In this document: positions 4,972-28,985 of the stretch, piece by piece | How the letters are laid out: each line of letters starts with the position of its first letter | Numbering within the stretch: the first letter of the stretch is position 1 | Source of the DNA: Alphaproteobacteria bacterium | GTDB taxonomy: Bacteria > Pseudomonadota > Alphaproteobacteria > UBA2136 > UBA6156 | Direction of reading: 5' to 3' | NCBI GenBank assembly: GCA_027485835.1 | Contig: JAIXQG010000002.1 | Coordinates: 880,681 to 944,680, forward strand | DNA length: 64,000 bases | The notes under the pieces: generated by a model | Told to the model about the DNA's origin: nothing | Database searches by the model: none | What the model saw: only the letters and a program-made list of their open reading frames with translations | Made by a program: the position numbers and the translations under genes

Positions 4972-6072
4972 ATGACAATGCAAAACAGTGGCCGGGTGAA
5001 AGCCCTTGGCATGATGAGTGGGACCAGCCTTGACGGTGTGGACGTATGTTTGGTGGACACTGATGGCGAGCAGGAGGTTGCGGTGCTGGGGCGGTATTAC
5101 CGGCAGTATCCGAGCCGTTTGCGCGAGCGCTTGTTGGAGGTATCACGCGGGGATATTCCGCTCGCCGACGTGTTGCGGTTGGAACGGGACGTGACCGAGC
5201 AGTATGCGCTGGCGCTGCTGGAAAGCAATTTGCTGGAACAGGCTGATGTGGTGGGGTGCCATGGCCAGACGGTGCGTCATATGCCGACCGAAGGGCTGAC
5301 CTGGCAGTTAGGCGACCCGAATTATCTGGCCGAGCGCATTACCGGTGTGAAGCCCGTGCCGGTGGTGATGGATTTCCGGCGGCGTGACATGGCGGCGGGA
5401 GGTGAGGGGGCACCGCTAGCCCCGTTGTTCCATGCGGTGATGCTGGGTAAGCGTGCTAAGGTGGCGTGTTTGCTGAATATCGGTGGCGTGGCGAATGTGA
5501 CGGTGGTGCACCCGGACGGGCGTGTGTTGGCGAGTGACTGCGGCCCAGGCATGGGCATGTTGGATACCTGGATGCAGGAGCAGGCCGGAGCTGAATTTGA
5601 CAAAGACGGTGCGGCGGCACGGCAGGGGATTGTGCAACAAGAATTGGTGGCACGCGCGTTGACTGAGATCGGGTTTTTTAGCCGACCTGTACCGTGCAGT
5701 GCTGATCGGTATGAATTTTACGGGATGTTCGATTGGATGAAAGGCCTGAATGTGGCCGATGGTGCCGCCACGCTGGGCGCACTGACCGTAGCGGGTATTG
5801 ACCGTACCCTGCGCGCGTTCGGCGTGGCGCCGGACGAAGTGGAGGGGCTGTATGTTTCCGGCGGTGGCAGCTACAACCCGGTGGTGATGGAAGGCCTTGC
5901 CGACCATGGTTGGCAGGTGGCCGATAGTACCGCCCTGGGATGGGAGCCTTTGGCCGTGGAAGCGGCGTGCTTTGGATGGCTGGCGGTGCGGCGGTTACGC
6001 GGTTTGCCGACGGCCCAGCCGAGTACGACGCATTGCACCCACCCCACCGTGGGCGGTGTTTTGACGGTATAA
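4972..6072 (+). CDS. anmK: Anhydro-N-acetylmuramic acid kinase
   Basis: GMMSGTSLDGVD motif and overall AnmK length. Confidence 0.85.
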   Translation: MTMQNSGRVKALGMMSGTSLDGVDVCLVDTDGEQEVAVLGRYYRQYPSRLRERLLEVSRGDIPLADVLRLERDVTEQYALALLESNLLEQADVVGCHGQTVRHMPTEGLTWQLGDPNYLAERITGVKPVPVVMDFRRRDMAAGGEGAPLAPLFHAVMLGKRAKVACLLNIGGVANVTVVHPDGRVLASDCGPGMGMLDTWMQEQAGAEFDKDGAAARQGIVQQELVARALTEIGFFSRPVPCSADRYEFYGMFDWMKGLNVADGAATLGALTVAGIDRTLRAFGVAPDEVEGLYVSGGGSYNPVVMEGLADHGWQVADSTALGWEPLAVEAACFGWLAVRRLRGLPTAQPSTTHCTHPTVGGVLTV

Positions 6073-10888: not shown

Positions 10889-11020
10889 GGCGCGGGCTAA
10901 AACACTCCCCCAGCACTTCTTGGCGGGTCTGAAATACTCTCTTGTATTCGGCGCCCCGCCAATAAGCACTGGGATGAGCGTTTATAGCTCCGCGCGCGGG
11001 GGCAACGGCGCGTGGCGCCG
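10889..11020. repeat. MITE/REP-like intergenic repeat, copy B
   Basis: ggcgcgggctaaaacactcccccagcac ... tttatagctccgcgcgcggggg. Confidence 0.55.
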
Positions 11021-11077
11021 TGTTTTTTTAGGGCAGGTGGGTTGTGGCGTTGGGGTGTGAGGCGTAGAAGGTTGGGT

Positions 11078-12865
11078 ATGGTACGACATTCCTCCGATAA
11101 AAAAGCGAAAACGTCAGTGGACAAGGCGACGCAGAAGCGGACGCAGCGGTTTTTGTGGGAGTTGGTACGGCCTTATAAGTGGCGGCTGCTGGGCGGGAGC
11201 CTGATGCTGGTGGTGAGTGCGGGGGCGATGCTGGCGTTGCCGCAGTATTTGCGGCACATGTTTGATACCGCGCTGCGCACCGGTGATAAGGCGCAGTTGG
11301 GCGTGCTGGCGGGCATGATGTTTGGCACTGTTTTGGTGATGGTGGTCAGTATTTTTGCGCGGACGTGGTTGATTCAGTACAGTTCGACGTCGATTTTGGC
11401 CGAATTGCGGCGCCGCCTTGCGAATACGCTGTTGATGCAGGACGTGCGTTTTTTTGAGAACCGTTCTTCGGGGGAATTGGTCAGCCGGATGGCGTCGGAT
11501 ACGACGTCGGTGCGGGAGTTTTTGCACATGGCGGCGCCGCAGTTGGTGCGGGGGATTTTTCTAGGATTAGGGACCTTGTTGGCGTTGCTTTATACTAGCC
11601 CGAGTTTGACGCTGGTGCTGGTGGTGGCGTGTTTGCCGATTGCGTTGATCGGGCGGTTTTTGGGGACCTCGATCCGTTCTACCGTACGGCAGCAGCAGGA
11701 TAACATGGCTGGGTTTGGTGGGGCTTTGGAAGAGGCCGTGGCTAATATCCGAACCATTTTAGCCTTTAACCAGCAGCCGCGCCTGATGGCGGATATGGAA
11801 GAGCGCACGCAGGATATGCAGCGCGTGGGCAACCGCTTGGCGACGATACGCTCGGGGTTTGTGGCGGTGAACGTAGTGGTCGGTTTTTCGGCACTGATTG
11901 GCGTAGTGTGGCTGGGCGGTGTGCGGGTGATGGAAGGGGCGATGAGCCTTGGCGATATGATGGCATTTTTGCTGTATTTAGCGTTTGCGGCGGATGCGGC
12001 GGGGAATATCACCAATTTTTGGCCGGCGTGGCAGGGGGTTTTAGGATCGACCGAGCGGATTATCGGGATTTTGGACAGCAAGCCGGAGATTGCCGAGCCG
12101 AAGAAGGCTAAGGCTTTGCCGGTGGCGAAGGGTGGGCGTGGGATTGTTTTGAAGAACGTGCGGTATGTTTACCCCGCACGGCCTGATACCGCGGCGCTGG
12201 ATGGCTTGGAGATGGCGATTGCGGCGGGGCAGAACGTGGCGGTGGTGGGGCCGAGTGGCGCTGGGAAATCGACGTTGTTTAGATTGTTTTTACGTTTGGA
12301 TGATGTGACCGAGGGTAAGTTGCTGTTGGACGGCGTGGACGTGCGTGAGGCCGGTTTGGCGGATTTGCGCCGGCAGTTTGCGCTGGTGGCGCAGGAAAGC
12401 CCGCTCTTCAGCGGTACGGTGGCGTTTAATGTGCGCTTTGCCAAGCCGGATGCCACCGATGATGAAGTGTGGGCTGCCTTGAAGGCGGCCCATGCTGATG
12501 GGTTTGTGAAGGCCTTGCCGAAGGGTTTAAAGACGCCGGTGGGTGAGAAGGGCGTGCAGCTAAGTGGCGGGCAACGTCAGCGGATTGCGATTGCGCGGGC
12601 GGTGCTGGCCGATGCACCGGTGCTGTTGCTGGATGAGGCCACCGCGCACTTGGATAGCGAGAGCGAGGCGGCGATTCAGGCCGCGCTAACGACCGTGGGC
12701 AAGGGGCGGACGGTGGTGACGATTGCGCATAGATTATCCACTGTGAAAAATGCCGATGTGATTTTTGTGATGGATAAGGGACGTGTGGTGGCTTCGGGGA
12801 CGCATGGCGAGTTGATGAAGAGTAGTTCGCTTTATAAGGCGTTGGCGGCTATTCAGCTTGGTTAA
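11078..12865 (+). CDS. ABC transporter, fused permease/ATPase (MsbA-like exporter)
   Basis: Six-TM N-terminal domain. Walker A GPSGAGKST, signature LSGGQRQR, Walker B LLLDEAT. Confidence 0.85.
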   Translation: MVRHSSDKKAKTSVDKATQKRTQRFLWELVRPYKWRLLGGSLMLVVSAGAMLALPQYLRHMFDTALRTGDKAQLGVLAGMMFGTVLVMVVSIFARTWLIQYSSTSILAELRRRLANTLLMQDVRFFENRSSGELVSRMASDTTSVREFLHMAAPQLVRGIFLGLGTLLALLYTSPSLTLVLVVACLPIALIGRFLGTSIRSTVRQQQDNMAGFGGALEEAVANIRTILAFNQQPRLMADMEERTQDMQRVGNRLATIRSGFVAVNVVVGFSALIGVVWLGGVRVMEGAMSLGDMMAFLLYLAFAADAAGNITNFWPAWQGVLGSTERIIGILDSKPEIAEPKKAKALPVAKGGRGIVLKNVRYVYPARPDTAALDGLEMAIAAGQNVAVVGPSGAGKSTLFRLFLRLDDVTEGKLLLDGVDVREAGLADLRRQFALVAQESPLFSGTVAFNVRFAKPDATDDEVWAALKAAHADGFVKALPKGLKTPVGEKGVQLSGGQRQRIAIARAVLADAPVLLLDEATAHLDSESEAAIQAALTTVGKGRTVVTIAHRLSTVKNADVIFVMDKGRVVASGTHGELMKSSSLYKALAAIQLG

Positions 12866-12903
12866 AACGAAACGCCCCGAACCATCATGGTTGGGGGCGT
12901 TCG
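12866..12903. terminator. Bidirectional hairpin terminator
   Basis: aacgccccgaacc / ggttgggggcgtt inverted repeat. Confidence 0.55.
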
Positions 12904-12994
12904 GTGGCGACATCATGTCGCCTTGCGTTTTTTGCTCCGCAGGTAAGCCAGCAGGGCGGCAATGTCATTGAAGTCGACATTGTCGTTTGCTGGT

Positions 12995-13300
12995 TTAAGC
13001 TGCATGGGCTTGCTCCTGCATCATTTCGATGAGGGCGCGGGCCCGGCGGACGTAGCGGGTCATGTCGTCAATATCGAACCTCGGGCGGGAGAGTTCGGGT
13101 GGGACGATAGGCACGATGCGGCCGTCTCGCACTTCCGTGCGGAGCGGGAAGCGGCGGATGTGCCGTTCTTCCCTGATTTCCTCGATCCGTTGGAGAATCC
13201 GTTGCTGTTCTTCCAAGTTGAATTCGAACGCGAGGCGTTCGGTTAACTTGGATTCAAGGGCTTTGAGATTCTCAAGGGAGTGAGAGGAGAGATTTGTCAT
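12995..13300 (-). CDS. Hypothetical charged protein (101 aa)
   Basis: ORF only. Confidence 0.35.
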   Translation of the reverse strand: MTNLSSHSLENLKALESKLTERLAFEFNLEEQQRILQRIEEIREERHIRRFPLRTEVRDGRIVPIVPPELSRPRFDIDDMTRYVRRARALIEMMQEQAHAA

Positions 13301-13421
13301 TGTTAAGAATCCTTATTAACGGATGTTAAAGGGGATCCCTGTTTTAAAATGGTCTTTTTATAGTTCGATAGTCGGTAGTAAGACCTTTGATATAGGGGCT
13401 GCGGAAGGGATTTACAAGGGG

Positions 13422-14207
13422 TTAGGCCTTGCGGGGGCCGGATTCGGCGAGGAGGGTGAAGCCGAGGACGGCAAGGATGATGGCGAGGCCGGGGAAGGTG
13501 ATGAGCCACCACGCGGCTTCAATCACGGCTTTGCCCTCGGTGAGCATAGCACCCCAGCTGGCGGTGGGCGGTTGTACGCCGAGGCCCAGGTAGCTGAGGC
13601 CGGCTTCGGTGAGGATGGCGCCAGCGAGGCCGAGGCTCATGCTGGTAATGACCGGTGGCAGGGCGTTGGGGAGGATGTGGCGCCACGCCTTATGGGTGTT
13701 GGAGGCGCCTGCCAAGGTTGCCGCCTCGACAAAGCTGCGGCCGCGAAGGGAGAGGACCTCGGCGCGGACGAGGCGGGCGATGCCCATCCAGCCGGTGGCG
13801 CCGATGACGACCATGACGTTCATGAGGCTGGGGGTTAGGAAGGCGATGACCGCCAAAATCAGGAAAATGGTGGGGAAGCAGAGCATGACGTCGGTGGCGC
13901 GCATCAGGGCGGCATCCAGCCAGCGCGGGCCCATGCCGGCGGCGGTGCCGATGACAATGCCGAGGCCGGTGGCAAGGCCGACGGCCACCAAACCGACCGA
14001 GAGGCTGGTGCGGGCGCCGTAGAGCAGGCGGGTGAGGACATCGCGGCCGAGGCCATCGGTGCCCAACAGGAAGGTGGCGCCGGGCTCGCGGAGGACGTCG
14101 TAGAGATGGAGGTCGTTTGGCCCAAACGGCGTGAGCCACGGTGCCAACAGCGCGGCCAGCAGGGTTATGCTTACCAGTATCAAACCTGCCACACGCCATT
14201 TGCTCAT
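13422..14207 (-). CDS. ABC peptide/nickel-type transporter permease (DppC/OppC-like)
   Basis: Binding-protein-dependent transport permease pattern. Six TM segments. Confidence 0.85.
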   Translation of the reverse strand: MSKWRVAGLILVSITLLAALLAPWLTPFGPNDLHLYDVLREPGATFLLGTDGLGRDVLTRLLYGARTSLSVGLVAVGLATGLGIVIGTAAGMGPRWLDAALMRATDVMLCFPTIFLILAVIAFLTPSLMNVMVVIGATGWMGIARLVRAEVLSLRGRSFVEAATLAGASNTHKAWRHILPNALPPVITSMSLGLAGAILTEAGLSYLGLGVQPPTASWGAMLTEGKAVIEAAWWLITFPGLAIILAVLGFTLLAESGPRKA

Positions 14208-14461
14208 GGACCTAACATAGCGGGTTGGGGGGTTGATGGCTAGGCCATCGCATCCCATAATAGCACCATGAACATAAGGCTATCTGGTAAAAGACTGATA
14301 CGACCTGAACGGGCTGAAAATGCGTCTGGATTCTGCTTTGCTTGGCGTCAAATAGTCCCCGCTATTAGCCGCCAATCCCAACACAACCAGTCGCCTTTTC
14401 ATCTCCGTCATCTCGCACCAGCCTTTCACCAGATAACCTTTCCTTACTGGTGTTGACTATG

Positions 14462-15115
14462 CGGGAGGTGCCTGACATGAACGGCGCTTCCCCTCCAAGC
14501 GTACCTGCGCACGTGTTTAACAGCCACCGCACGCTGCTGTTGAATGCCGATTATTCTCCCTTTAGTTACCCGCTGGAGCCGCTGAACGCGGAAGATACGA
14601 TTAAGGGCCTGTGTTTGGGCCGTTATGTGGTGGTGGAGTGGAGCGAGACGTTTGCGCATAGCCCGAGTTTGGAAATGCGGTTACCGAGCGTGGTGGCGGT
14701 GAAGGAGTATGTGACCGATGCGGGGCTGTATGGGGTGCCTGCGTGTAATATCGGGAACCTTTACGTGCGGGATAAGGGCCTGTGCCAGTACACGGGGCGG
14801 GAGCTGAAGCTGCATGGCGCAGGGACGCATACGCTGGCGACGATGGACCATGTGATCCCCAAAAGCCGGGGCGGGTTGCTGACGTGGGAGAATACCGTGT
14901 TGGCCAGCCAATACGCCAACAATGCCAAGGGCGATAAAAGCCTGAAGGATTTTGGGATGCCGCTGCTAAACACGCCGTGGGTGCCGCGGGGGGGGGATTT
15001 GCTGTACTTGTGGCTGACCGAAGAGCGTTTGGCCAGTTTGCCGCAAACGTGGCATGCGTTTTTGCAGGTGGTGCCGACACCTGCGCTGCGGCGGGTTTTG
15101 GAGGCGGCGGCGTAA
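14462..15115 (+). CDS. HNH endonuclease-domain protein
   Basis: DHVIPKSRGG..TWEN ... NNAKGDKSL HNH motif. Native-like codon usage. Confidence 0.7.
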   Translation, partial: REVPDMNGASPPSVPAHVFNSHRTLLLNADYSPFSYPLEPLNAEDTIKGLCLGRYVVVEWSETFAHSPSLEMRLPSVVAVKEYVTDAGLYGVPACNIGNLYVRDKGLCQYTGRELKLHGAGTHTLATMDHVIPKSRGGLLTWENTVLASQYANNAKGDKSLKDFGMPLLNTPWVPRGGDLLYLWLTEERLASLPQTWHAFLQVVPTPALRRVLEAAA

Positions 15116-15208
15116 GGGAGGAATTAGGAGGCGGAAGAGCTTTAATAACGCCGTTATGCCTCTAAAGACCGGATGACCATGGGTGGCCGGTCTTTTTTGT
15201 GTGGTGTG

Positions 15209-16171
15209 TTAGTTGGTGGTGCGGGGGTCGGCGTAGGCGTAGGCGAGGTCGGCCAGCAGGTTGCCGAGGAGGGTGAGGATGGCGCCGAGGGTGAGGAGGG
15301 CCATGATGGTGGGGTAGTCGCGCATCATCACCGCCGTGTAGAACAACTGGCCGAGGCCGGGGAGGGCGAAGAGGCTCTCGAGAATCACGCTACCGCCGAT
15401 GAGGCCGGGTACGCTGAGGCCGAGGATGGTGATGAGCGGCAGCAGCGAATTGCGCAGGGCGTGGGTGAGCGTGCGCAGTTGGCTGGCGCCTTTGGCGCGG
15501 GCGGTGAGGATGTAGTCTTGTTGCAGGGATTCTATCGTGCTGGCGCGGACAAAACGGGTGATGCCGGCGATGCTGCCGAGCACGCCGACGGCGAGCGGGA
15601 GGGCGAGGTGGTGCAAAAGGTCGAGTGTGCGGGGCAGGAACGACCAGTTTTCCGCGCCAAAGCTATACAGGCCCGAGAGCGGAACCCAGCCCAAGGTAAT
15701 GCCGAAGAACTGCATGCCAAGCAATGCCAGCCAGACGCCGGGGGCGGCGAGGAAGAGGTAGAGGACGAGGGTGGAGATACTATCGCGCAGGCTAAACGGT
15801 TTGGAGGCGACCCAGATGCCGAGGGGAATGGCGGGGAGCAGCGTGAGCAGCAGGCCGGAGAGGTTGAGCCAGAGGGTGAGGGGGAGGGCTTCCATCAGTT
15901 TGTCCCAGACCGGGCGGCCATCTGGCGCCAGAGAGGTGCCGAGGTTGCCTTGCAGCAGGTTGCCGAGCCAGAGGAGGTATTGCTGCCAGATGGGTTTGTC
16001 CAGCCCGTAGGCGGCCTGCATGGCGGCGTTGGCGTGGGCTTTGGGGTCGAGGTCGCCCATTAACTGCGTGGGGTCTCCCGGTGCCAAGTGCATGACGGCG
16101 AAGCAGAGGATGGTGACACCGAGGAGAAGCGGTAAAGCTGAAAGCAGGCGTTGAAGGGTGTAGGTGAGCAT
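15209..16171 (-). CDS. ABC peptide/nickel-type transporter permease (DppB/OppB-like)
   Basis: N-terminus MLTYTLQRLLSALPLLLGVTILCFAVMHLAPGDP is typical of DppB. Confidence 0.85.
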   Translation of the reverse strand: MLTYTLQRLLSALPLLLGVTILCFAVMHLAPGDPTQLMGDLDPKAHANAAMQAAYGLDKPIWQQYLLWLGNLLQGNLGTSLAPDGRPVWDKLMEALPLTLWLNLSGLLLTLLPAIPLGIWVASKPFSLRDSISTLVLYLFLAAPGVWLALLGMQFFGITLGWVPLSGLYSFGAENWSFLPRTLDLLHHLALPLAVGVLGSIAGITRFVRASTIESLQQDYILTARAKGASQLRTLTHALRNSLLPLITILGLSVPGLIGGSVILESLFALPGLGQLFYTAVMMRDYPTIMALLTLGAILTLLGNLLADLAYAYADPRTTN

Positions 16172-16217
16172 GGTAGCATCGTAGCGTTATTACCTGGCTC
16201 CGCCAAACAGAAAGACA

Positions 16218-16793
16218 GTGATCATGCGTACCGCTCCGGCAAGCTATAACCTGATTGATAAAACCCTGCACTGGGCGATGGCGCTGGTGATTGTGGGGAT
16301 GCTGGCAAGCGGTTTGCTGATGGATTATGTGCAGCCGCTGGCGCTGAAGTTTCAGGTGATCCAGTTGCATAAATCGTTTGGGATATTGGTGCTGGTGCTG
16401 GCGTTTACGCGGGTGTTCTGGCGCTTTACCAACCCGACGCCACGCCTGCCGCTGGGTATGCCACGTTGGCAGAATGCGATTGCACATGGCACCCACCTTG
16501 CGCTGTACGGCTTGATGTTTGTGATGCCGTTTAGCGGGTGGATGATGTCGGATGCCAAGGGGTATCACCCGAATTTCTTTGGGTTGCCGGTGCCGATGCT
16601 GGGTGAGGTAGACCGTGCGGCGGGGCGTGTGCTGGGGGATGTGCATGAGTATGGTGCCTACCTGCTGATGGCGTTGCTGGCGGCGCATATGGGTGCCGCG
16701 CTGTATCATCACTTTATTGTGAAGGATGATATTCTGGCGCGGATGTTACCGGCCCGTTGCGGTAAAGGTAGCGGTTGCTGCTGCAAGCATTAA
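16218..16793 (+). CDS. Cytochrome b561 family protein
   Basis: Four TM helices, conserved His residues, N-terminus typical of the b561 family. Confidence 0.75.
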   Translation: MIMRTAPASYNLIDKTLHWAMALVIVGMLASGLLMDYVQPLALKFQVIQLHKSFGILVLVLAFTRVFWRFTNPTPRLPLGMPRWQNAIAHGTHLALYGLMFVMPFSGWMMSDAKGYHPNFFGLPVPMLGEVDRAAGRVLGDVHEYGAYLLMALLAAHMGAALYHHFIVKDDILARMLPARCGKGSGCCCKH

Positions 16794-16830
16794 AGATATT
16801 CAATCAACAAAAAAACGAAAGGGTAGGGGT

Positions 16831-17385
16831 ATGCGTTACGGCATGATGATGGTAGCGGGTTTGATGGCGGTAAGCGCGCAGGGATTTGCGGCGACGCAAT
16901 GGGCGGTAGACCCTGCCGCGAGCAAACTGGAATGGCAGGCGGCGTTTAATGGTCAGGCCGTGAAAGGCGAGTTCAAGAGCTGGGTGGCGGCGATTGCGTT
17001 TGATGAGAAGGATTTGCAAACCTCCAAGATTAAGGTGGATGTGCAGCTTGGGAGTGTGGACAGCGGCGATGACGACCGTGATGGCACACTGAAGGGCGCC
17101 GAGTTTTTTAATGTGGCGGCGACCCCTGTGGCGGTGTTTGAGAGTTCGCACATCGTGAAAGAAGGCAACGGTTACGTGGCCGATGGTACCCTGACCCTTG
17201 CCGGTGTGAAAAAGGGTGTGAGCCTGCCGTTTACCGTTGTGATTGCGAATGGCAAGGCCGAGGCCAAGGGCAAGCTCACCCTCAGCCGTAAGGATTTTGG
17301 CGTAGGGAAAGGCCAGTGGGCGACCTCGACCGAAATTGCCGACAAAGTGGACGTGCTGGTGCATGTGAAGGCGAGCGCGAAGTAA
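16831..17385 (+). CDS. YceI-like periplasmic protein
   Basis: Signal peptide plus YceI-like sequence. Commonly paired with cytochrome b561. Confidence 0.75.
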   Translation: MRYGMMMVAGLMAVSAQGFAATQWAVDPAASKLEWQAAFNGQAVKGEFKSWVAAIAFDEKDLQTSKIKVDVQLGSVDSGDDDRDGTLKGAEFFNVAATPVAVFESSHIVKEGNGYVADGTLTLAGVKKGVSLPFTVVIANGKAEAKGKLTLSRKDFGVGKGQWATSTEIADKVDVLVHVKASAK

Positions 17386-17393
17386 GACATAGA

Positions 17394-17900
17394 ATGGCGG
17401 GTGTCGGGCGGACGATTATTTTAGGGCTCGACCCCGGGCTGGAGCATACCGGTTACGGTGTGATTGCTGTGGAAGGGAACCGCCATACCTTTATGGCGGC
17501 GGGGCGTGTGACGACCAAGGCCAGTGACCCGATACCCCTGCGGTTGGCGCAGTTGGCGGCGGGGATTGGTGAGGTTATTAAGGTGTATTCTCCGACCGAG
17601 GCGGCGGTGGAAGAGGTGTTTGTGAATGTGAATGCCCGCAGCAGCCTGAAATTGGGCCAGGCGCGTGGCGTGAGCCTGTTGGTGCCGAGCCAGCACGGGT
17701 TACCGGTGCATGAGTATGCGGCGCGGCTGGTGAAGCAGTCGGTAGTTGGCAAAGGTGGCGCCGAGAAAACGCAGGTGGCGCATATGGTGGGCGTGTTGTT
17801 GCCCGGCTGTGGCAAGTTGCCGGCCGATGCGACCGATGCACTGGCCGTGGCGCTGACGCATGCGCATCATCGGACATTTGCGCGGGTGTTGGCGGGCTAA
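17394..17900 (+). CDS. ruvC: Holliday junction resolvase RuvC
   Basis: ILGLDPGLEHTGYGVI. Confidence 0.9.
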   Translation: MAGVGRTIILGLDPGLEHTGYGVIAVEGNRHTFMAAGRVTTKASDPIPLRLAQLAAGIGEVIKVYSPTEAAVEEVFVNVNARSSLKLGQARGVSLLVPSQHGLPVHEYAARLVKQSVVGKGGAEKTQVAHMVGVLLPGCGKLPADATDALAVALTHAHHRTFARVLAG

Positions 17901-17919
17901 AAGCCTGTATTTAAGAATA

Positions 17920-17953
17920 AAAAAACGCACGTCTGGGGGACGTGCGTTTTTTC
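17920..17953 (+). terminator. Rho-independent terminator after ruvC
   Basis: aacgcacgtctgggggacgtgcgtttttt. Confidence 0.7.
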
Positions 17954-17959
17954 GGCTGA

Positions 17960-18200
17960 AAAGGTCACGGGGACACAACCTTTTCAGAATACAGGCCGAC
18001 GGGCCCTTTTGGGGGAAAGGTATTGGGCGGGGCTTCCAATAACCCGTCGGTTGCTTGGTGCGGCGGCACCAAACGGGGCGAGAAGGAGGTCCAGGAGATG
18101 CGGCGGACCTAGCACCTCCTTCTCGGGGAGTTACACGACACAGAGGCACGAGGAACCTCTTTTGATGTGTTGTGCGGTCTCCCAAAGGGAACAAAATTAT
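17960..18200 (+). ncRNA. Candidate structured RNA or regulatory leader in the 465-bp ruvC-ruvA spacer (speculative)
   Basis: Several extended stems, e.g. gagaaggaggt...acctccttctc (11 bp), ccgacggg...cccgtcgg, ctgaaaaggt...accttttcag. Confidence 0.15.
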
Positions 18201-18274
18201 GATTGTGAATATGTTTATGCGGTGTTCCTGCTTAAATAATTAAGCAACTATGTGTTGCAGGCTGTATAATGAAG

Positions 18275-18283
18275 TTATCCACA
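18275..18283 (+). promoter_or_regulatory. Perfect DnaA box TTATCCACA just downstream of a TATAAT -10-like hexamer (18265-18270) upstream of ruvA
   Basis: Exact motif match. Confidence 0.45.
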
Positions 18284-18365
18284 GGCGTCAAGTGGAGCCA
18301 AGCGGCTTTTTTACGAAAATGTGGGAATTCGTTGTCTCTTGCGTTAGTTGTGGTAGCTTTAGGGC

Positions 18366-18959
18366 ATGATTTCCCTTCTCTCGGGCCCCGTGTTGGCCGT
18401 TACCTCGACCTCTGCCATTATTGACTGTGCCGGTGTGGGCTATGAGGCCTTGTGCACCACCCGTACGCTGGCGACGCTGACAAGTGGCCAACCTGCCCGT
18501 GTGTTTACGGTTTTGAACGTGCGTGAAGATGCCTTGACACTGTTTGGATTTGCGACGGTGGAGGAGCGGAGCTTCTTCAACCAGTTAACCAGTGTGAGCG
18601 GGGTGGGGCCGAAGTTGGCGTTGTCGCTGCTTTCTAGTTTTTCTCCGGCGGAAGTGCAGCAGGCGATCAGCTTGAACCAGCCCGCGACTTTGGCGCGTGC
18701 GAGTGGTGTGGGCAAGCGCATGGCGGAGAAGATTATCGTCGAGCTGAAGGACAAGTTGGGCAAGATTACCGAGTTTGGTCCGCTGGGCGTGGCGGCGCAG
18801 GGCGCGGTGGCGATGCAAGCGGCGGATTTGGCCTCGGCGCTCATTAACCTTGGGTACCAGCCGAAGATTGCCGAAAGTGCCGCGACCGAGGCGTTGAAGG
18901 CCAACCCGAGTGCGCCGTTTGAGGAGTTGTTCAGGTTGGCGTTGCGTAAAGCTGCATAG
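18366..18959 (+). CDS. ruvA: Holliday junction DNA helicase RuvA
   Basis: MISLLSGPV...VGYE...GVGPKLALSLLS. Confidence 0.9.
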   Translation: MISLLSGPVLAVTSTSAIIDCAGVGYEALCTTRTLATLTSGQPARVFTVLNVREDALTLFGFATVEERSFFNQLTSVSGVGPKLALSLLSSFSPAEVQQAISLNQPATLARASGVGKRMAEKIIVELKDKLGKITEFGPLGVAAQGAVAMQAADLASALINLGYQPKIAESAATEALKANPSAPFEELFRLALRKAA

Positions 18960-19001
18960 GTTTTTAGTTTATACTCAGTATTAAGAATAAGAGGTATATC
19001 A

Positions 19002-19694
19002 ATGAAATTACAGTATTTGGGGCACAGTGGTTTCCGGCTGGAAGATGGAAGCTTTACGTTGTTGGTGGACCCGTTTTTGACGGGGAGCCACACCGCACCG
19101 ATGGAGTGGGAGAAAGCGGCAAAAGACGTGACCCATGTGGTGCTGACCCATGGCCATAGCGACCATGTGGGCGATACGGTGGCGATTGCGAAGGCGAATG
19201 ATATTCCGGTAGTGGCGATGGTGGAGCTGGCGCGTTGGTTGGGCCGCAGAGGTGTGACGGATACGATTGAGGCGAATTTTGGCGGCACGGTAGCGTTGGG
19301 CCATGGTGTGAGCGTGACGCTGGTACCGGCATGGCACACCAGTGCGAGTGATGAGGGTGAGTATTTGGGAGAACCGGCCGGGCTGGTGATTACCATGAGT
19401 AACACCACGATTTACCACGCCGGTGATACCGCGATTTTTGGCGATATGGCTTTAATTGATGAGCTGTATAAGCCCGATGTGGTGCTGTTGCCGATTGGCG
19501 GGACCTACACCATGGATGCCAAAACGGCGGCGATTGCGGCGGAGAAGTATTTTAAAAAGGCCAAGGTTGTGCCGATGCACTATGCGACCTTCCCCGTACT
19601 GGCGCCGGATTGCGACGTGTTTATGGCGGAATGCGAGCGTCGCGGTGTAGAGGCGCATCCACTGAAACCCGGTGACGTGATGCAGTTGGCTTAA
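19002..19694 (+). CDS. Metal-dependent hydrolase, beta-lactamase fold (UPF0173 family)
   Basis: MKLQYLGHSGF...THGHSDHVGD. Confidence 0.8.
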   Translation: MKLQYLGHSGFRLEDGSFTLLVDPFLTGSHTAPMEWEKAAKDVTHVVLTHGHSDHVGDTVAIAKANDIPVVAMVELARWLGRRGVTDTIEANFGGTVALGHGVSVTLVPAWHTSASDEGEYLGEPAGLVITMSNTTIYHAGDTAIFGDMALIDELYKPDVVLLPIGGTYTMDAKTAAIAAEKYFKKAKVVPMHYATFPVLAPDCDVFMAECERRGVEAHPLKPGDVMQLA

Positions 19695-19713
19695 GGGTAC
19701 TGCTTGCCGAGAC

Positions 19714-19744
19714 AAGGCGCCACCTTCGGGTGGCGTTTTTTTGG
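19714..19744 (+). terminator. Rho-independent terminator
   Basis: gcgccaccttcgggtggcgttttttt. Confidence 0.7.
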
Positions 19745-19799
19745 GCGATGGCTGCTATTGTTGTTACGATTATCAGAAAAATGGGTGTAAAGTGGCGGT

Positions 19800-20804
19800 A
19801 TGAGCGAACCGTTGCTGTCTCCCTTATTGTCTCCTGTGGCGTTACCTGAAGAACAGCAGGTGGACCATGCGTTGCGTCCACAGAGTTTGGCGGATTTTAC
19901 CGGTCAGCCGGAATTATGCGATAACCTGCAGGTGTTTATTGCCAGTGCCAAGGCGCGTGGCGGAGCGTTGGATCATGTGTTGCTGGCGGGGCCTCCGGGC
20001 TTGGGCAAGACCAGTTTGGCGCATATTCTGGCAAAGGAGTTGGGGGTGGGATTCCGCTCTACCAGCGGGCCGGTGATTGCCAAGGGCGGCGATTTGGCGG
20101 CGATTTTGACCAGTTTGCAGCCGCATGACGTGCTGTTTATCGATGAAATTCACCGTTTGAGTACCAGTGTGGAAGAAGTGCTGTACTCGGCGATGGAAGA
20201 CTTCAAGCTGGATATTATCATAGGCGAGGGGCCTGCGGCGCGGACGGTGCGGGTGGATATTCCGCCGTTTACACTTGTGGGCGCTACGACGCGGGCGGGG
20301 ATGCTGAGCAACCCGTTGCGTGACCGTTTTGGGGTGCATGGGCGGTTAGAGTTTTACACGGCCCCTGATTTGCAACGGATTGTGAGTCGTGCGGCGCATT
20401 TGCTGGGCGTGCCGATTGCCGACGATGCGGCGACCGAACTGGCGGCACGCAGCCGTGGCACGCCGCGGATTGCCAACCGCCTGCTGCGCCGTGTGCGTGA
20501 TTTTGCCACCGTGGCCGGTGAGACGGCACTTAACCTTGCGACAACGCGCCATGCGCTGATGCGGCTGGGTGTGGATGGTATTGGCTTGGATAAGAATGAC
20601 CTGCGTTACTTGCAGGCTTTGGTGAACAAGTTTGCCGGTGGGCCGGTGGGGCTTGGCACCTTGGCGGCGAGCACCGGTGAGAGCGAGGATACGCTGGAAG
20701 ATATGGTGGAGCCGTATTTGTTGCAGTTGGGGTTTGTGCAGCGGACGCCGAGAGGGCGGGTGGCGACCGAGGCGGGGACGCGGCACGTGCTGACGGGGGA
20801 ATAG
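19800..20804 (+). CDS. ruvB: Holliday junction DNA helicase RuvB
   Basis: [12 protein letters not shown] ... [11 protein letters not shown]. Confidence 0.95.
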
Positions 20805-20836
20805 AAAAAGGCGCCGGAGACCGGCGCCTTTTCGTT
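20804..20836. terminator. Bidirectional hairpin terminator, copy 1 of the repeated palindrome ggcgccggagaccggcgcc
   Basis: Hairpin flanked by an A-run and a T-run. Identical to the copy at 21743-21773. Confidence 0.7.
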
Positions 20837-20846
20837 TCAGAGGAGT

Positions 20847-21662
20847 TCAGACGTGAATCTGAAGTGTGCATGCCAGAGGTGGCAGGGGTTCGTTTGTTTC
20901 AATGTTGATAGGCTCGTTTTCGTCATGTCGGCGGGCATCGATGATGCGGTGATGCACTCCCATAAATTTCGAAAGTTCGCCGTTGGCCGTGTGCCACTTC
21001 AAGATGAGCTTGAAGTTACCATCCGGCATATTCTGCACTGTGAGCGTGCAGGTGTCGTTTTCACGGTCGGCATGCAGGATATGGACCACGAGTTGCAGAG
21101 GGAACTTCTGCAGTTCGACGGTATAGACCGGCATAGATTGCTTTCTGTTTTCAGCGGCTTGGGCCGCCTTGGCCGCAACCTTATCGAAGTGCAGGCGCAG
21201 CTTGCCGAGGCGTTCTGCAGAGCTGCCCTCGACATAGGTTTCTGGCGTAAGTGGCTCTTTCCATTCGATCTCGTCGTCGGAGTCGCGCGGAAAGGTGAAG
21301 TATTCCATGAAGGCGAACCAATTGTGCCAGCCGTGGTGAAAGGGTACCCAGACATGTGAGTATTCTCCGCTGCCCATGCTTTTGGAAGCAAAGATAGCGG
21401 TGCATTCGGCGAGTTGGCCGAGTTCATCCATCAGGGCACTTAAGCTGATTTCGCCATCCTGTTTGAGGGGATTGTAAAATGCTTCCAGGCTATCGGCGAT
21501 GCAGCGTTGAAAGTCGGTCTCGCAGGATTTGCCTGCCAGAACGTGATTCAGATTTTCGAGGAAGAGGGTGAAGTCTTCGTCACTGCAGTAGGCCGGATTT
21601 TCGGGGCGGAGTTCTTCGGCTTCGAAACAAATGACGGGGAGGGTGATGTGAGTGTCGGTCAT
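20847..21662 (-). CDS. Hypothetical protein (271 aa), low GC3, likely horizontally acquired
   Basis: Long ORF. Codon usage rich in AAT/GAT/TTT, unlike neighbours. Confidence 0.5.
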   Translation of the reverse strand: MTDTHITLPVICFEAEELRPENPAYCSDEDFTLFLENLNHVLAGKSCETDFQRCIADSLEAFYNPLKQDGEISLSALMDELGQLAECTAIFASKSMGSGEYSHVWVPFHHGWHNWFAFMEYFTFPRDSDDEIEWKEPLTPETYVEGSSAERLGKLRLHFDKVAAKAAQAAENRKQSMPVYTVELQKFPLQLVVHILHADRENDTCTLTVQNMPDGNFKLILKWHTANGELSKFMGVHHRIIDARRHDENEPINIETNEPLPPLACTLQIHV

Positions 21663-21740
21663 GGTGGTGCTCCTCTGAACAGACCGGGAAGTTAAAAAAA
21701 ATGGCTCGTGATTTTTGTATACCTATAGGTGGTGGGGAGC

Positions 21741-21774
21741 AAGAAAAAAGGCGCCGGAGACCGGCGCCTTTTTG
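21741..21774. terminator. Hairpin terminator, copy 2 of the ggcgccggagaccggcgcc palindrome
   Basis: gcaagaaaaaaggcgccggagaccggcgccttttt. Confidence 0.7.
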
Positions 21775-21789
21775 CGTGTGGGAGTGGTA

Positions 21790-22163
21790 TCAGCCTTTCA
21801 GGTAGCTGATGAAGAAGGGATCGGCTTCGGCGATACCGAGGGTAATGAGCGCTACGTAGACTAGTTTGCAGAGGATGTGCAGGATCTGGTCGGTGTGGAA
21901 GCCGAAGCGACCATCGTTTTTGCCGTAGTCGATGGCGGTATGGAGCACGAACTCGATCAGCGCCAGCGCGAAGTTGCCGGTGATGAGCCAGACGACGCCT
22001 GCGTGGGGCAGGGTGTGGCCGGTGAGGTTCCAGCCCCAGATGGTTTCCGGGATGTGCTCGAATTTCTTTTTGTGCGATTTGTAGATTGCGATGAATTCGT
22101 ACTGGTTGAAGTCGATGAAGGTGTGTCCGATAAGCAGGGCGAAGAGGAGTTGGATCTCAAACA
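21790..22163 (-). CDS. Small integral membrane protein (possibly DUF3307-like), hypothetical
   Basis: ORF with good RBS GGAGAAACCGAG before the ATG. Hydrophobic. Confidence 0.45.
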
Positions 22164-22219
22164 TCTCGGTTTCTCCTGTGGATAGTATCCTCTGTATACG
22201 TGGATGGTGGGATGCTTGC

Positions 22220-22253
22220 AAGAAAAAGGCGCCGCGGGGTGCGGCGCCTTTTA
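22220..22253. terminator. Hairpin terminator, variant copy 3 (ggcgccgcggggtgcggcgcc)
   Basis: gcaagaaaaaggcgccgcggggtgcggcgcctttt. Confidence 0.65.
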
Positions 22254-22277
22254 AGGTTGTCGTTCGAAGAATAGCGC

Positions 22278-23057
22278 TCAGGCTGTTTTTTGGGCCGGAG
22301 CGGTGAGGAGAGGGAGGTCGAGGGTCAGTGTGCCGAAGGCTTGGCAGCGTGCAATAAGCTCCTCTGTCCGAAAAGACGGATTCACTTTTGTAGTGATACT
22401 GCTCCAGCGAAACTTTACCTCGTAACCACTGGACGCGTCCCGATGAAACGGGGAGAGTCCGACGTAGGCCACACCTGTTTCGAGCTGAATGCTGAAATTC
22501 ATGTTACCTTCTTCTAAGCCTGCTCTCAGGGCGGAGCTAGAAGACAGACATATGAAATCTCCGTTGTCTGCACATTCCCGTATCATTTTGTAGTGCCAGC
22601 AAAGCCATTCCACAAGTAGATCGAAAAGCTCGTGAGGAGTCGTGCCGAAGTGATTCAGCATGAAGGGATCGATGGTCTTTATGTGGTCACCTGTTGCGAG
22701 TGCCGCGAGATGCGGTATCGCCGGATGAATCCCTTTTGCGTGATCAATCCGCCAGTTCTGGGTGAGAGTACCTTCTGCCATACGACCTTTGTAGATGCTC
22801 TGCGCATAAAGGGCGAGGTAGGCGATGAGAGTCTTGAGTTCTTGGCGTGTGATTTCGCCGCTATTGTAGAGGCTCCAGTAGCTGTTGTTACGCTCCTTGA
22901 TATAGAATTCGCCTGACTTTCGCAGTTCGTTCCGCAAGGTCCTGACGGCGGATGTTGCCGTAGCTGGTGCTACGCCGTTAGTGCGGAGAATCTCCGTGAG
23001 ATCCTTAATCAGGATTTCCGTTTTACGGGAGCGTTCTTCAAAAATTGCGTCGCCCAT
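22278..23057 (-). CDS. Hypothetical protein (259 aa) with a possible N-terminal HTH-like region
   Basis: ORF. Low GC3. Confidence 0.5.
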   Translation of the reverse strand: MGDAIFEERSRKTEILIKDLTEILRTNGVAPATATSAVRTLRNELRKSGEFYIKERNNSYWSLYNSGEITRQELKTLIAYLALYAQSIYKGRMAEGTLTQNWRIDHAKGIHPAIPHLAALATGDHIKTIDPFMLNHFGTTPHELFDLLVEWLCWHYKMIRECADNGDFICLSSSSALRAGLEEGNMNFSIQLETGVAYVGLSPFHRDASSGYEVKFRWSSITTKVNPSFRTEELIARCQAFGTLTLDLPLLTAPAQKTA

Positions 23058-23206
23058 GGGAGCGCCTTTCTGGACTATGCCGGTTAGGAATGAAGAGATT
23101 ACGAGATACTGCTTTGGGCGTGGTTTTAGGCGGAAGTTGCTGGTTTGGCAAGGAAAAGCATAAAGAAAAGCCCCTGTGACAGGGGCTTTGCAAGGTGGGC
23201 GTTAGC

Positions 23207-23950
23207 CTAGTTTTGGCTACCGATGGCTTTTTGTACGGCGCGGGTGCGGGAGTACAACGGAGTTTCATCGGTCATTTCGCCTTCGGTTACGGCGGGGATG
23301 GCGATCTTGCGGGTGGTCATCCAGCTGTTGATGGCGATGGTGGCCATTTGGCGCATGGTCTTCTCAGCAGCGTCGCCCTTTTTACGCTTGAGGGCGCCGA
23401 GCAGGGTGATGAGGTGGGTGTTCAGTTCCTTCTTCTGGCCGACAGAGGTTGCCCAGAGTTCAGACATGTTGGTGCGTCGCTTCACCATGCTGATAGCTTC
23501 GGACACGGTCGGGCTGAAGGCGGTCTTTTCCATCATTTCCAGAGCGATTTCCAGCGATTGCAGGTATTGGGTGCTTTGGAGAGAATCGTCTTGGGCAAAG
23601 GCGAAGGCGGTTTCGAGGTCCATCAGGGCTTCGATGCTGGCTTTTTCAGCGGCCAGTTTGGCAGCGAGGCCGAGGAACAGGCTGTAGGATTGCAGCTGGT
23701 CTACCTTGGTGCTGGTGGGGACGTGGGTGACGAAGGCACCGCGGTGGGGAACCATTTCGACCAGACCGTCGGCAGCGAGGGCGCACAGAGCTTCACGCAC
23801 CGGAGTACGGGACACGTTGTAGTCCTTGCTGATCTTCAGCTCGGACAGGTGGAAGCCACCATCCAGTTCACCATTGAGGATTTTGTCGCGGAGGGATTCG
23901 CGGACCATGGTGTCGAGATTGCTGTGTTGAGTCGTCATCTGCTTGCTCAT
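23207..23950 (-). CDS. GntR-family transcriptional regulator (FadR-like C-terminal domain)
   Basis: N-terminal wHTH ...SELKISKDYNVSRTPVREALCALAADGLVEMVPHRGAFV. Confidence 0.8.
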   Translation of the reverse strand: MSKQMTTQHSNLDTMVRESLRDKILNGELDGGFHLSELKISKDYNVSRTPVREALCALAADGLVEMVPHRGAFVTHVPTSTKVDQLQSYSLFLGLAAKLAAEKASIEALMDLETAFAFAQDDSLQSTQYLQSLEIALEMMEKTAFSPTVSEAISMVKRRTNMSELWATSVGQKKELNTHLITLLGALKRKKGDAAEKTMRQMATIAINSWMTTRKIAIPAVTEGEMTDETPLYSRTRAVQKAIGSQN

Positions 23951-24238
23951 TTCTGTTCGTCTTTCCCCTGTGGTTTTTATTATTCTGTTTTTTTATCAGG
24001 CGGGGCCACGGCACGGTGGATACCATTCGGGCCCTGTATTGGCTGCAACCTGCCATGCCTTTTCCTTAGGGTCAAGGGCTAAGTATACATATTGGGCAGC
24101 GAAAGATGCTTTTGCACGCAATTCTGTTTTTATCATATCTTTTAGTTGTGATGTTTAGGTGGCAGAGGGTTAGCACGAGTGGACTTGAACCCTGCATAGG
24201 CCATGCGTTTTGATGTTGGTTGGCCTATACTTTATGCT

Positions 24239-24742
24239 ATGCAGCGCTATATTGCCCTTGGATGTTGGATGACCTTTGCCACGGTAGCCGCCGTGCGTGC
24301 CCAAACGAATGAATGTGTTCCGCCGGATGCGGGGCTTGCGATTGCTGGGGCTGTACGGGATTTTAAACTGCCGCCGTCTCCGGCGTGTGTGGCTGCCGAT
24401 TATAGCCATAGCTACGGGCCGATTATTGATTACGAGGCTGCGACAAGGCCTGCCGCTGCTGCGCCGGCCACCCCAGCCGCACCCGCTGCGGTGCCGCAAG
24501 TACAACGCCCGCAGCCGACCGGGCCGGTACTGGGGGCGGGTGAAGGCATGGATTTATATGACCTTGAGGCAGGTACGGGAGGCAGTGCGACCCAGTATAA
24601 TGGCCGCGAGCTGGAGCGTTTAGGCCAACTGGATGCCATGCAGGGCAAACCCCTTAATATGGACCATGCCAGCGATATTAACTATGTGCGCGGTTACACC
24701 AAGGGTAACGAACGCCGGACGATGCCGACACCTTGGCGGTAG
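24239..24742 (+). CDS. Secreted hypothetical protein with an Ala/Pro-rich segment
   Basis: Signal peptide MQRYIALGCWMTFATVAAVRAQT. Confidence 0.4.
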   Translation: MQRYIALGCWMTFATVAAVRAQTNECVPPDAGLAIAGAVRDFKLPPSPACVAADYSHSYGPIIDYEAATRPAAAAPATPAAPAAVPQVQRPQPTGPVLGAGEGMDLYDLEAGTGGSATQYNGRELERLGQLDAMQGKPLNMDHASDINYVRGYTKGNERRTMPTPWR

Positions 24743-24845
24743 GTTTTTCTGTTTTTTATTGCATATCAATGTTCAAGTGCTGTCAGGTTGTTGATTGAAT
24801 ACAGTATTGGCGGGGTTTATAAAGGGGTAGAGAGGAACTGCCACC

Positions 24846-25469
24846 ATGATGCACGCAACCCGTACCCGTATGACCGGCCTTATGCTTGCCATGGCATTGG
24901 TTGTGGCGCCTGTAGCCGAGAGTTATGCCTTAACCGCCGCCGACTATAGTACCAGAAACCCGGGCTATGGCATGGACATGGCCAGTGTGATTGATGCGCA
25001 GAGTATGATTAGTGCGATGTCTCTGGCGCAGGCGAACGGGTTTAATATTCAGGGTTTGGCTTCAGCCAGTTTGGGCAGCATGATTGGCAGTGCCGTGACC
25101 AATGCCATGGGCATTGATGGCGTGCTGGGAGGAGTTGTGCAGGGCGTGATTACGGCCGGTGTGATGCAGGGGCTTGATAAGTTGAGTGCCGGCGGCAGCA
25201 TGGGGAATTTTGGGGGGTTGCTGAGTGCCTCGCTCAGCAGTGCATTGCTGCAGCAAGGCGGTATGCAGGGTGCTTTTGCGACAGCCAGCAATTCGTTTGG
25301 AGGTTCGTCCAATTCTATTCTGACGGCAGCGGTGAGCTCTGGTGCGCAGGCGGCGCTGGGTGCTGCGAGCAGTGGTTCCGGCAGTAATATGATTCAGACC
25401 GTGGCGACTGCGGCGGTTGTCGGTGGGATTCAGGGGGCCGTGGCTAATACGGCGAGTTTGACGCAGTAA
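24846..25469 (+). CDS. Secreted Gly/Ser/Ala/Met/Gln-rich low-complexity protein
   Basis: Signal peptide. Repetitive GGxxQG / SxxLSSALLQQGGMQG composition. Confidence 0.5.
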   Translation: MMHATRTRMTGLMLAMALVVAPVAESYALTAADYSTRNPGYGMDMASVIDAQSMISAMSLAQANGFNIQGLASASLGSMIGSAVTNAMGIDGVLGGVVQGVITAGVMQGLDKLSAGGSMGNFGGLLSASLSSALLQQGGMQGAFATASNSFGGSSNSILTAAVSSGAQAALGAASSGSGSNMIQTVATAAVVGGIQGAVANTASLTQ

Positions 25470-28462: not shown

Positions 28463-28492
28463 GCGGGTTCTTGTTGTTTTGAAATTGGGGCG

Positions 28493-28985
28493 TTAGAGGT
28501 CGGTCGACTCGATGGTCACGCTGCGGGCGGTGTTGGTGGTGGCTGCGATTTTAGCGCGGTTGATGTGGCGCATGGAGGGTGGGATGAGGTCGTGGCTATC
28601 GAGCCAGTCGAGGGCCGCTTCCTTAATACGTTCCCGCAGCCAGCCACCGGTGCGGCCTTGCGAGAAGTGCTGCGAGAGACTGGCGATGGTGGCGGTTTGC
28701 AGCCAGTTGTCCAGAATGGTTTGTTCGTCTTCGCTGAGGTGCTTACGCTCGGCGCTTTGGGCGATTTCGGTGAGGTAGCTCTCGGGCAGGGGTTCTAGTG
28801 GAAAGATGTTTTTGGCCGGAGCGTCGGTGGGGGCGGTGGTGGAGACGGTGCCGGTACGGGTATCCAGCACGCACGGCGCGGTGCCGCAGAGTGCGGCGAG
28901 GATGTCGTCGATATCGTACTTGTGGGTGAAGAGGTGCTCGGACATCAGGAAATTCATGAGGGCAGGATAATCGGTGGGTGACATT
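28493..28985 (-). CDS. Hypothetical protein (~164 aa), strongly C-ending codon usage (like ribosomal genes here)
   Basis: Long open frame. The N-terminal extension in the ORF track overlaps a better-supported + strand gene. Confidence 0.4.

Follow-up and report, generated by a model that had tools for sequence, protein, structure and literature searches.

An HNH nuclease gene between the separated dppB-like and dppC-like permease genes of uncultured Alphaproteobacteria, and the variable slot that holds it

How a nuclease gene came to lie between two genes of one importer, on the opposite strand, and whether it is a selfish arrival or a settled gene of the cell, is the question raised by a 64,000-nucleotide stretch of an Alphaproteobacteria bacterium (contig JAIXQG010000002.1 of assembly GCA_027485835.1), which is called the window below. 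The window was found to contain a dppC-like ABC importer permease gene on the minus strand (13422-14207, with an alternative upstream start at 14258; Pfam BPD_transp_1 at 6.6e-28 and OppC_N) followed by a stand-alone HNH (beta-beta-alpha-Me) nuclease gene for a product of 212 amino acids on the plus strand (14477-15115, in an open reading frame (ORF) from 14450) and by a dppB-like permease gene on the minus strand (15209-16171; BPD_transp_1 at 3.9e-36 and BPD_transp_1_N). The ORFs and Pfam domains agree with the layout given in an earlier note on this DNA, and the HNH motif MDHVIPKSRGGLLTWENTVLASQYANNAKGDKSL named there was present in the translation of the middle gene. That note took the arrangement for a permease operon split by the insertion of a selfish or stand-alone nuclease, with the permeases left as orphans. 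The insertion reading was found to be right in a deep evolutionary sense, whereas its selfish and orphan parts were not supported. The HNH gene is probably a domesticated, vertically inherited stand-alone nuclease gene at an ancient insertion site, which is now a variable islet in a dispersed importer operon.

The loci compared here were gathered by a scan of a genome collection with DppB and a scan of metagenomes with DppC. In the outgroups (Desulfomonilaceae, Deferribacteraceae, Nitrospirae and others, at 45-61% identity), dppB and dppC were found to be contiguous and on one strand in 12 listed genome loci and about 70 metagenome loci, usually after a gene for a family-5 substrate-binding protein (SBP). 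The outgroup locus L024 was found to contain a fused double ABC ATPase gene after dppC and was the only locus checked for it. Because the outgroup operons are contiguous, something was inserted between dppB and dppC in the lineage of the window; the split proposed in the earlier note is thus real, whereas a recent or selfish insertion is not supported. The related uncultured Alphaproteobacteria (DppB 62-97% identical) were found to keep the order and orientation of the two permease genes, with 0.8-1.8 kb of opposite-strand genes between them. The ancestral operon would have been orf-CNNM-SBP5-dppB-dppC with an ATPase gene.

In 16 of the 17 related lineages, dppC was found to have an HNH gene as its opposite-strand neighbour (16 independent lineages with the window counted: the window, L001-3, L004-5, L006-7, L008-9 with a 428-kb contig, L010, L012-L017, L174, L175, L177-178 and L179-180). 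The order dppC(-), HNH(+), dppB(-) was found in all of these except L175, in which dppB was found about 4 kb away and inverted and the HNH gene was still beside dppC. The C-terminal extension of the subfamily was the sole ground on which L177 and L179 were selected, out of a protein library without genomic context, and both fall in the slot. No empty dppB-dppC junction was found among the 17 related lineages, and the matches to the HNH product in phage and plasmid collections were all below 45% identity. The presence of an HNH of one subfamily in 16 of 17 lineages, with no close phage or plasmid copy, speaks against the selfish or recent insertion of the earlier note; recent mobility by way of phage or plasmid was rejected on these distant matches. 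The note had proposed a comparison of the junction in relatives, on the argument that the same HNH gene found there always, with independent promoters for the permeases, would make the arrangement ancestral and not an insertion. The comparison largely came out that way, but the HNH was not always the same, as divergent HNH lineages and extra ORFs were found to alternate in the slot. The closest relatives, L012, L014 and L017, are metagenome-assembled genomes (MAGs) with loci syntenic to those of unclassified Alphaproteobacteria MAGs, and their deposited names ('Blastochloris viridis', 'Pseudomonas fluorescens' and 'Pseudomonadaceae bacterium') are evidently wrong.

The HNH gene of the window was found to be an intact gene under strong purifying selection. 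Its orthologues (29) were 48-91% identical to it, and its ratio of nonsynonymous to synonymous divergence (dN/dS) was 0.048-0.054 against L012 and L001, at a dS of 0.9-1.0, which is like that of the neighbouring genes; the dN/dS of RuvA was 0.02. Since it has 29 orthologues at this identity and a dN/dS of 0.05, the ORF is not a chance one. The G+C content at third codon positions (GC3) was 0.74, in line with the neighbouring genes, and together with the dN/dS this bears out the earlier description of the gene as an old resident with native-like codon usage.

The HNH product was found to match PF01844 with 28.0 bits (cutoff 21.4) and PF13395 (HNH_4) with 24.6 bits (cutoff 22), and its score against PF14279 was 23.8 bits, under the cutoff of 27.5. 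The catalytic D-H...N...N residues (D133, H134, N148 and N157) were invariant across 31 sequences, and the motif was also kept in the B, C and E variants of the slot, with EH in L016. The AlphaFold2 (AF2) model of the protein (predicted local distance difference test score, pLDDT, 89.8) contained a beta-rich N-terminal domain at about residues 20-100, followed by the HNH core at about residues 101-170 and four C-terminal helices. The top Foldseek matches were the HNH domains of Cas9 and the Gme HNH (probability 0.99-1.0, root-mean-square deviation 2.6-3.1 over 61-68 columns). The PDB sequence and Foldseek searches matched only the core, with nothing found for the N-terminal domain or the C-terminal extension, and no signal peptide was found in the sequence of the N-terminus.

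The protein belongs to the HNH superfamily, as a derived branch of a large two-domain family. The canonical members of this family, of about 185 amino acids (an 'LNADYxPL' domain and a Cys4 HNH; COG1403, labelled 'McrA'), were found in Alphaproteobacteria, Actinobacteria, cyanobacteria and jumbo phages and formed 587 clusters at 50% identity (E <= 1e-30). The slot subfamily was found to contain the same domain order, with both domains alignable at 38-45% identity, and the same D-H...N...N residues; the N-terminal 'LNADYxP...RLPSV' domain is common to both groups, with L29, L31, N32, D34, P37, L78 and P79 invariant. Unlike the canonical family, the slot subfamily has dppB and dppC as neighbours and has lost three of the four zinc-binding cysteines, with CQYTG and ASQYAN in place of C.YCG and AC..CN, and it contained an insert of 6-7 residues ahead of the DH motif and, in place of the 'YWDxELE' tail, a helical extension, about 40 residues long, with Ala-Ala as its last residues. 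No experimentally tested function was found for either the canonical or the slot group. The canonical members were found away from these permease genes, as in L011 and in S. meliloti, where the gene lies next to a 3-methyladenine glycosylase gene. The only other adjacency of an HNH gene with the permeases was found in an outgroup metagenome contig, L159, which contained a canonical Cys4 HNH of 195 amino acids (5309-5896), convergent with dppC and 14 bp after it; at about one in 80 loci, this is probably chance.

In the neighbour-joining (NJ) tree all slot HNHs were found together, apart from the canonical Cys4 family. This grouping, with the common loss of cysteines, the insert of 6-7 residues and the C-terminal extension, gives the slot HNHs a single origin. 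Within the slot they were split into an A lineage (with L017) and the B, C and D lineages (bootstrap 90), and the A lineage was congruent with the host tree. The type A HNHs were 52-97% identical to the window copy and were found in the window, L001, L004, L006, L008, L010, L012 and L175. The B-group HNHs, carried by L013, L014, L015, L016 and L177 and by the second gene of L001, were 30-43% identical to type A and 42-45% identical among themselves, and at least 10 further clusters at 50% identity were found in the subfamily.

The A and B groups were found to be interleaved on the permease tree. The DppB of L013 was 91% identical to that of the window whereas its B-group HNH was only 42% identical to the type A of the window; the DppB of L015 (B) was 84-86% identical to those of L004 and L006 (A); and L177 (B-like) and L010 (A) were equally distant from the window. 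The nucleotide identity between the window and L013 was 68-89% in dppC, about 50% across the slot and 87-94% exactly from the dppB stop. From these alignments the slot appears as a small variable islet with sharp replacement boundaries. Tandem HNH pairs were found in L001-3 and in L174, and L001 and L012 contained type A HNHs of 97% identity with different second slot genes, whereas in the window the HNH and dppB stops were only 93 bp apart and no second slot gene was found.

Unrelated ORFs were also found beside the slot HNHs. A family of orphan ORFs with no Pfam match was found in L012 (P0108) and in L006 (8777-9517), the two being 38% identical by BLASTP and 39% by MAFFT. They were seen to contain a 'PD...(E)xK'-like motif, with a predicted alpha-beta-beta-beta-alpha-beta order. 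As a PD-(D/E)xK nuclease, the P0108-type ORF is a tentative lead: Pfam gave no match, a homologue search returned the query only, and the single-sequence AF2 model had a pLDDT of 47.7. An Avd/23S_rRNA_IVP-like four-helix-bundle gene was found to be orthologous in the slots of L010 (5951-6322) and L015, on the minus strand next to dppB; these two loci have the gene in common though their HNHs differ in deep type (A and B). The slot of the 428-kb contig contained two unassigned ORFs.

The permeases themselves were found to be of the Dpp/Opp/Nik importer type, with BPD_transp_1 and family-specific N-terminal segments by Pfam, and an EAA-type loop was visible in the dppC-like translation. The top NCBIfam matches were Opp4B for the DppB-like protein (260 bits, cutoff 450) and Opp4C for the DppC-like protein (256 bits, cutoff 350). 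No NCBIfam model gave an equivalog-level score for either permease, the nearest being Opp4B/Opp4C and NikB/NikC; because all equivalog cutoffs were missed, the substrate class of the transporter is not assignable. The dN/dS of dppC was 0.07-0.09 against L012 and L001, and that of dppB was 0.09-0.13, with purifying selection on both. The permease genes, and not the HNH gene, were found to be the compositional outliers of the locus, with a GC3 of 0.85 against 0.66-0.74 in the neighbouring genes, and their dS to the clade-I relatives was about 0.5, which is about half that of the neighbouring genes (0.75-1.2). The raised GC3 was common to the permeases of L012, L001, L013, L016, L017 and L174 and was not found in L004, L006 and L010. 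The pattern could stem from codon bias, from gene conversion or from exchange among relatives; GC-biased gene conversion as a general feature of the slot was dropped, as the raised GC3 is missing in those three loci.

The permeases are not orphans. The family-5 SBP gene that the earlier note placed at 25516-27150 was found to be real (PF00496 at 5.2e-83) and is part of a minus-strand block orf234-CNNM/CorC-SBP (25516-29197; Pfam). An intermediate state was found in L174, L179 and L180, with the order orf-CNNM-SBP5-dppB followed by the HNH gene and dppC, and with the SBP gene 10-700 bp from dppB. The SBP of the window was 58-60% identical to the dppB-adjacent SBP of L174 and L179, preceded by the same CNNM (54%) and orf (35%), and shared 38-45% identity with the SBPs encoded just ahead of dppB in the outgroups. 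The block between SBP and dppB in the window (16218-25469, about 9.3 kb on the plus strand; by Pfam cytb561, yceI, ruvC, ruvA, a metallo-beta-lactamase (MBL) hydrolase, ruvB, a GntR regulator and unassigned ORFs) is made of genes that were also found in relatives and was not found between SBP and dppB in L174, L179 and L180. Because these three loci keep the same orf-CNNM-SBP block beside dppB, the SBP of the window is cognate to these permeases and has moved about 9.3 kb away from dppB, and the orphan label of the earlier note does not hold.

The lack of a nearby DppD/F ATPase gene, also claimed in that note, was found to extend across the 64-kb window. A six-frame motif scan of the window for Walker A and LSGGQ gave an MsbA-like exporter gene (11012-12865) as its sole gene and no DppD/F. 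The operon of the window is thus dispersed, with its SBP 9.3 kb off and no importer ATPase within 64 kb, the ATPase being the one part of the importer left to account for, and a canonical operon was found in the outgroups only.

The likeliest start of the HNH gene is the ATG at 14477, which was found 8 nucleotides after a Shine-Dalgarno sequence, GGGAGG (14463-14468, plus strand), and the resulting product of 212 amino acids matches an NCBI record; an exact look-up of the form of 221 amino acids with a GTG start was empty, and that form was rejected. A single promoter-like site was found in 12800-16400, a sigma-70-like consensus match, TTGATG-17-CATAAT, on the plus strand (14233-14261), as a candidate promoter of the HNH gene, and the block was kept in the alignment with L001, L002 and L012. 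A terminator-like hairpin (AAAGACCGG...CCGGTCTTTTTT) was found on the plus strand between the convergent stops of HNH and dppB (15164-15198), with a fold energy of -19.7 kcal/mol and a T6 tract after its stem of 9-10 pairs; with a z of only -1.8, it is no more than suggestive of a terminator between the two genes. Since a Shine-Dalgarno sequence of its own and a conserved promoter-like site, set back-to-back with dppC, precede the HNH gene, and the terminator-like hairpin follows it on the side of dppB, dppB and dppC are most likely no longer simply co-transcribed, and dppC is most likely on a promoter of its own.

The spacer between dppC and HNH was about 60-110 bp in L001 and L012, and in the window it was found to contain an imperfect, MITE-like (miniature inverted-repeat transposable element-like) palindrome of about 165 bp (14276-14440), inserted in the HNH leader and specific to this genome. 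This palindrome had a self reverse-complement match of 71% over 166 nucleotides and a hairpin energy of -67.7 kcal/mol (z = -7.2), was present in one copy in the window and was absent from L001, L002 and L012. It lies downstream of the conserved promoter-like site and upstream of the HNH start codon and could alter the expression of HNH or dppC. No Rfam family was matched in 12800-16400, the palindrome included, and no LexA box (GAACN7GAAC-type) was seen in the dppC-HNH spacer on inspection by eye.

The terminal Ala-Ala was found in all 25 of the type A sequences and in most other variants, against a background of about 6% of the ORFs in these loci. The terminal Ala-Ala of ssrA-like degrons is critical for ClpXP (PMC10862746; PMC7652416). 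From the near invariance of this ending, control of the nuclease level by ClpXP may be inferred, and the tail suggests a ClpXP degron that would keep the nuclease at a low level. A minus-strand ORF of 101 amino acids downstream of dppC (12995-13300) also ends in Ala-Ala, and its coding status is doubtful; as a part of the system it was rejected, since the small ORFs at the same position in relatives were not alignable.

The course of events that is thought probable here would have started when the ancestor shared by the uncultured alphaproteobacterial lineage acquired, a single time, the stand-alone two-domain HNH gene, placed in the spacer of dppB and dppC and on the other strand. The gene would then have been inherited in place as a functional cellular gene, with repair, defence or self-propagation as its possible task, while the operon would have fragmented further, with the ATPase unlinked and, in the window genome, the SBP displaced by about 9.3 kb. 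HNH paralogues would have arisen by tandem duplication in the slot, followed by differential loss or by recombinational exchange through the conserved permease flanks, and unrelated ORFs would have come and gone beside them. With its D-H...N...N residues, in an HNH site that is of the Cas9 type and has no zinc, the protein would cut or nick DNA. Several points weigh against this account. The sample consists of MAGs and metagenome contigs of uncertain taxonomy, and the HNH occupancy of the slot is not absolute, as the most distant relative, L018 (DppB 63%), was found to contain an unrelated ORF of 224 amino acids there (with no detectable kinship to the P0108-type ORF; hhalign probability 0.8%). 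The tree of the B-group HNHs was not clearly congruent with the host tree, and differential loss of paralogues and lateral exchange of alleles cannot be told apart here. The putative promoter and terminator are no more than matches to a consensus, with a z of -1.8 for the hairpin, and the terminal Ala-Ala is needed but is not enough for recognition by ClpXP (PMC10862746).

Other explanations would give the slot a more active part. The HNHs may be, or may recently have been, free-standing homing endonucleases that cut the junction or a rival allele and were copied by recombinational repair together with the permease flanks. The intergenic position between conserved genes, the different nucleases held in the same slot by close relatives, the tandem copies, the sharp replacement boundaries with greater divergence at the 5' end of dppC in L013, and the intergenic mob and seg genes of phages as precedents (PMC2988022, PMC2790892) are what such a history could leave behind; the lack of observed empty sites in 17 related lineages, the native composition of the HNH gene, and an A lineage that follows the host tree under a constraint like that on RuvA are not, and the phage and plasmid matches all stay below 45% identity. 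The permease dS within clade I, at about half that of the neighbours, and the raised GC3 could be the yield of co-conversion or biased gene conversion, but the low dS may stem from codon bias, and L004, L006 and L010 do not share the raised GC3. Homing is considered unlikely. The slot may also be a miniature defence islet, in which restriction-like HNHs (for example modification-dependent, McrA-like ones) diversify under phage pressure with accessory genes. A B-group of only 42-45% identity among hosts with 80-90% identical permeases would fit this, as would the at least 10 further subfamily clusters and the turnover of unrelated slot ORFs, including the Avd/23S_rRNA_IVP-like gene and the orphan with the PD..ExK-like motif. 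An N-terminal domain followed by an HNH is also the architecture of EcoKMcrA (a weak Foldseek match, 6ghc), but no modification-reader domain was recognised, residues 1-100 being without a Pfam, PADLOC or PDB match. PADLOC gave only a generic Cas9-HNH similarity (E ~1e-5) and PtuB at E = 0.007, with no partner genes; the slot of the window contained no methyltransferase or partner gene; and the A lineage is conservative and fixed, unlike typical accessory defence genes. Defence is therefore given an equally small chance.

A functional tie of the HNH to the transporter or to dppC expression, such as a shared divergent regulation that kept the linkage, is considered very improbable. The HNH-dppC adjacency was found to outlast changes of the flanks (recX/nuoN/msbA on one side and ruvC-secA/cytb561 on the other) and the relocation of dppB in L175, and the short spacer of L001 and L012 (about 60-110 bp) would suit divergent regulation, but plain synteny inertia accounts for the linkage equally well. 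No mechanism is known for a link between HNH nucleases and importers of the peptide or nickel type, the canonical members are not beside transporters, bar the probably fortuitous L159, and the HNH protein has no signal peptide at its N-terminus. A bolder extension is thought rather doubtful, namely that the dppC-dppB spacer is a long-lived chromosomal nuclease cassette locus, in which zinc-less HNHs with a ClpXP-type Ala-Ala tail, joined now and then by ORFs of other nuclease-like kinds, would be duplicated, vie for the slot and displace each other by recombination in the permease flanks, as a cellular counterpart of the T4-like mob/seg cassettes or as a protease-gated defence nuclease not recognised before.

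The slot resembles several known systems in part. The mobA-E (HNH) and seg (GIY-YIG) genes of T4-like phages are likewise stand-alone nucleases between conserved genes that alternate in one slot (PMC2988022, PMC2790892), whereas the slot described here is on a bacterial chromosome, with no empty sites, strong purifying selection and one lineage that is vertical; the sporadic presence and empty sites among close relatives that mark homing endonucleases were not found for the slot HNH. The best sequence and structure matches to the HNH core were the Cas9-type HNH (PF13395) and the Gme HNH nicking endonuclease (PDB 4H9D). The slot HNH, like the HNH of Cas9, is without zinc-binding cysteines, but unlike Cas9 it has no RuvC domain, guide RNA or CRISPR context, and its NCBIfam scores were far under the cutoffs of Cas9 (29 against 375) and IscB (18 against 175), so that on these scores it is no relative of Cas9 or IscB in any meaningful sense. 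With the type IV restriction endonuclease EcoKMcrA (PDB 6GHC) it shares the layout of an accessory domain at the N-terminus and an HNH at the C-terminus, and JGI labels its homologues 'McrA'; the similarity was nevertheless weak and limited to the core (Foldseek E = 0.014, TM 0.25), with N-terminal domains unrelated in sequence, and the slot HNH cannot be filed as McrA. The permeases and SBP of the window are clear members of the Dpp/Opp/Nik type of operon (SBP_bac_5, permease B, permease C, ATPases), the canonical order of which was found in the outgroups, whereas in the window the B and C genes are separated by an antisense nuclease gene, the SBP gene is 9.3 kb off and no importer ATPase gene lies within the 64 kb. 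In a limited literature search, no precedent was found for a lineage-wide nuclease slot in a split ABC operon with alternating paralogues and an Ala-Ala tail.

Elsewhere in the window, the plus strand was found to have an unusually strong GC skew (+0.22 overall and up to 0.38 per 400-nucleotide window). Nearly all genes lie on the plus strand, the permease genes and the SBP block being some of the few exceptions. A XerC/D-type tyrosine recombinase gene (31073-32017) followed by accA (32017-32970), and genes with phage-tail-lysozyme and M23 peptidase domains after accA (34404-37298), were unrelated to the HNH slot.

The locus shows a stepwise dismantling of an importer operon, from the intact operons of the outgroups, through L174 and L179, in which the nuclease is in and the SBP is still attached, to the window, in which the SBP is 9.3 kb away. 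As a caution for annotation, the local context alone was insufficient to call the permeases orphan or the HNH genes mobile. The inserted nuclease became a conserved cellular gene instead of decaying, and with it a derived HNH subfamily is defined that is zinc-less, C-extended and Ala-Ala-terminated and was found at this one position in every case examined, with deep HNH lineages that alternate between closely related hosts. If the variants act in homing or in defence, the slot would offer a compact model of nuclease turnover in a bacterial chromosome, and if the terminal Ala-Ala is a ClpXP degron, the subfamily would be a natural case of a nuclease with genotoxic potential that is restrained by proteolysis.

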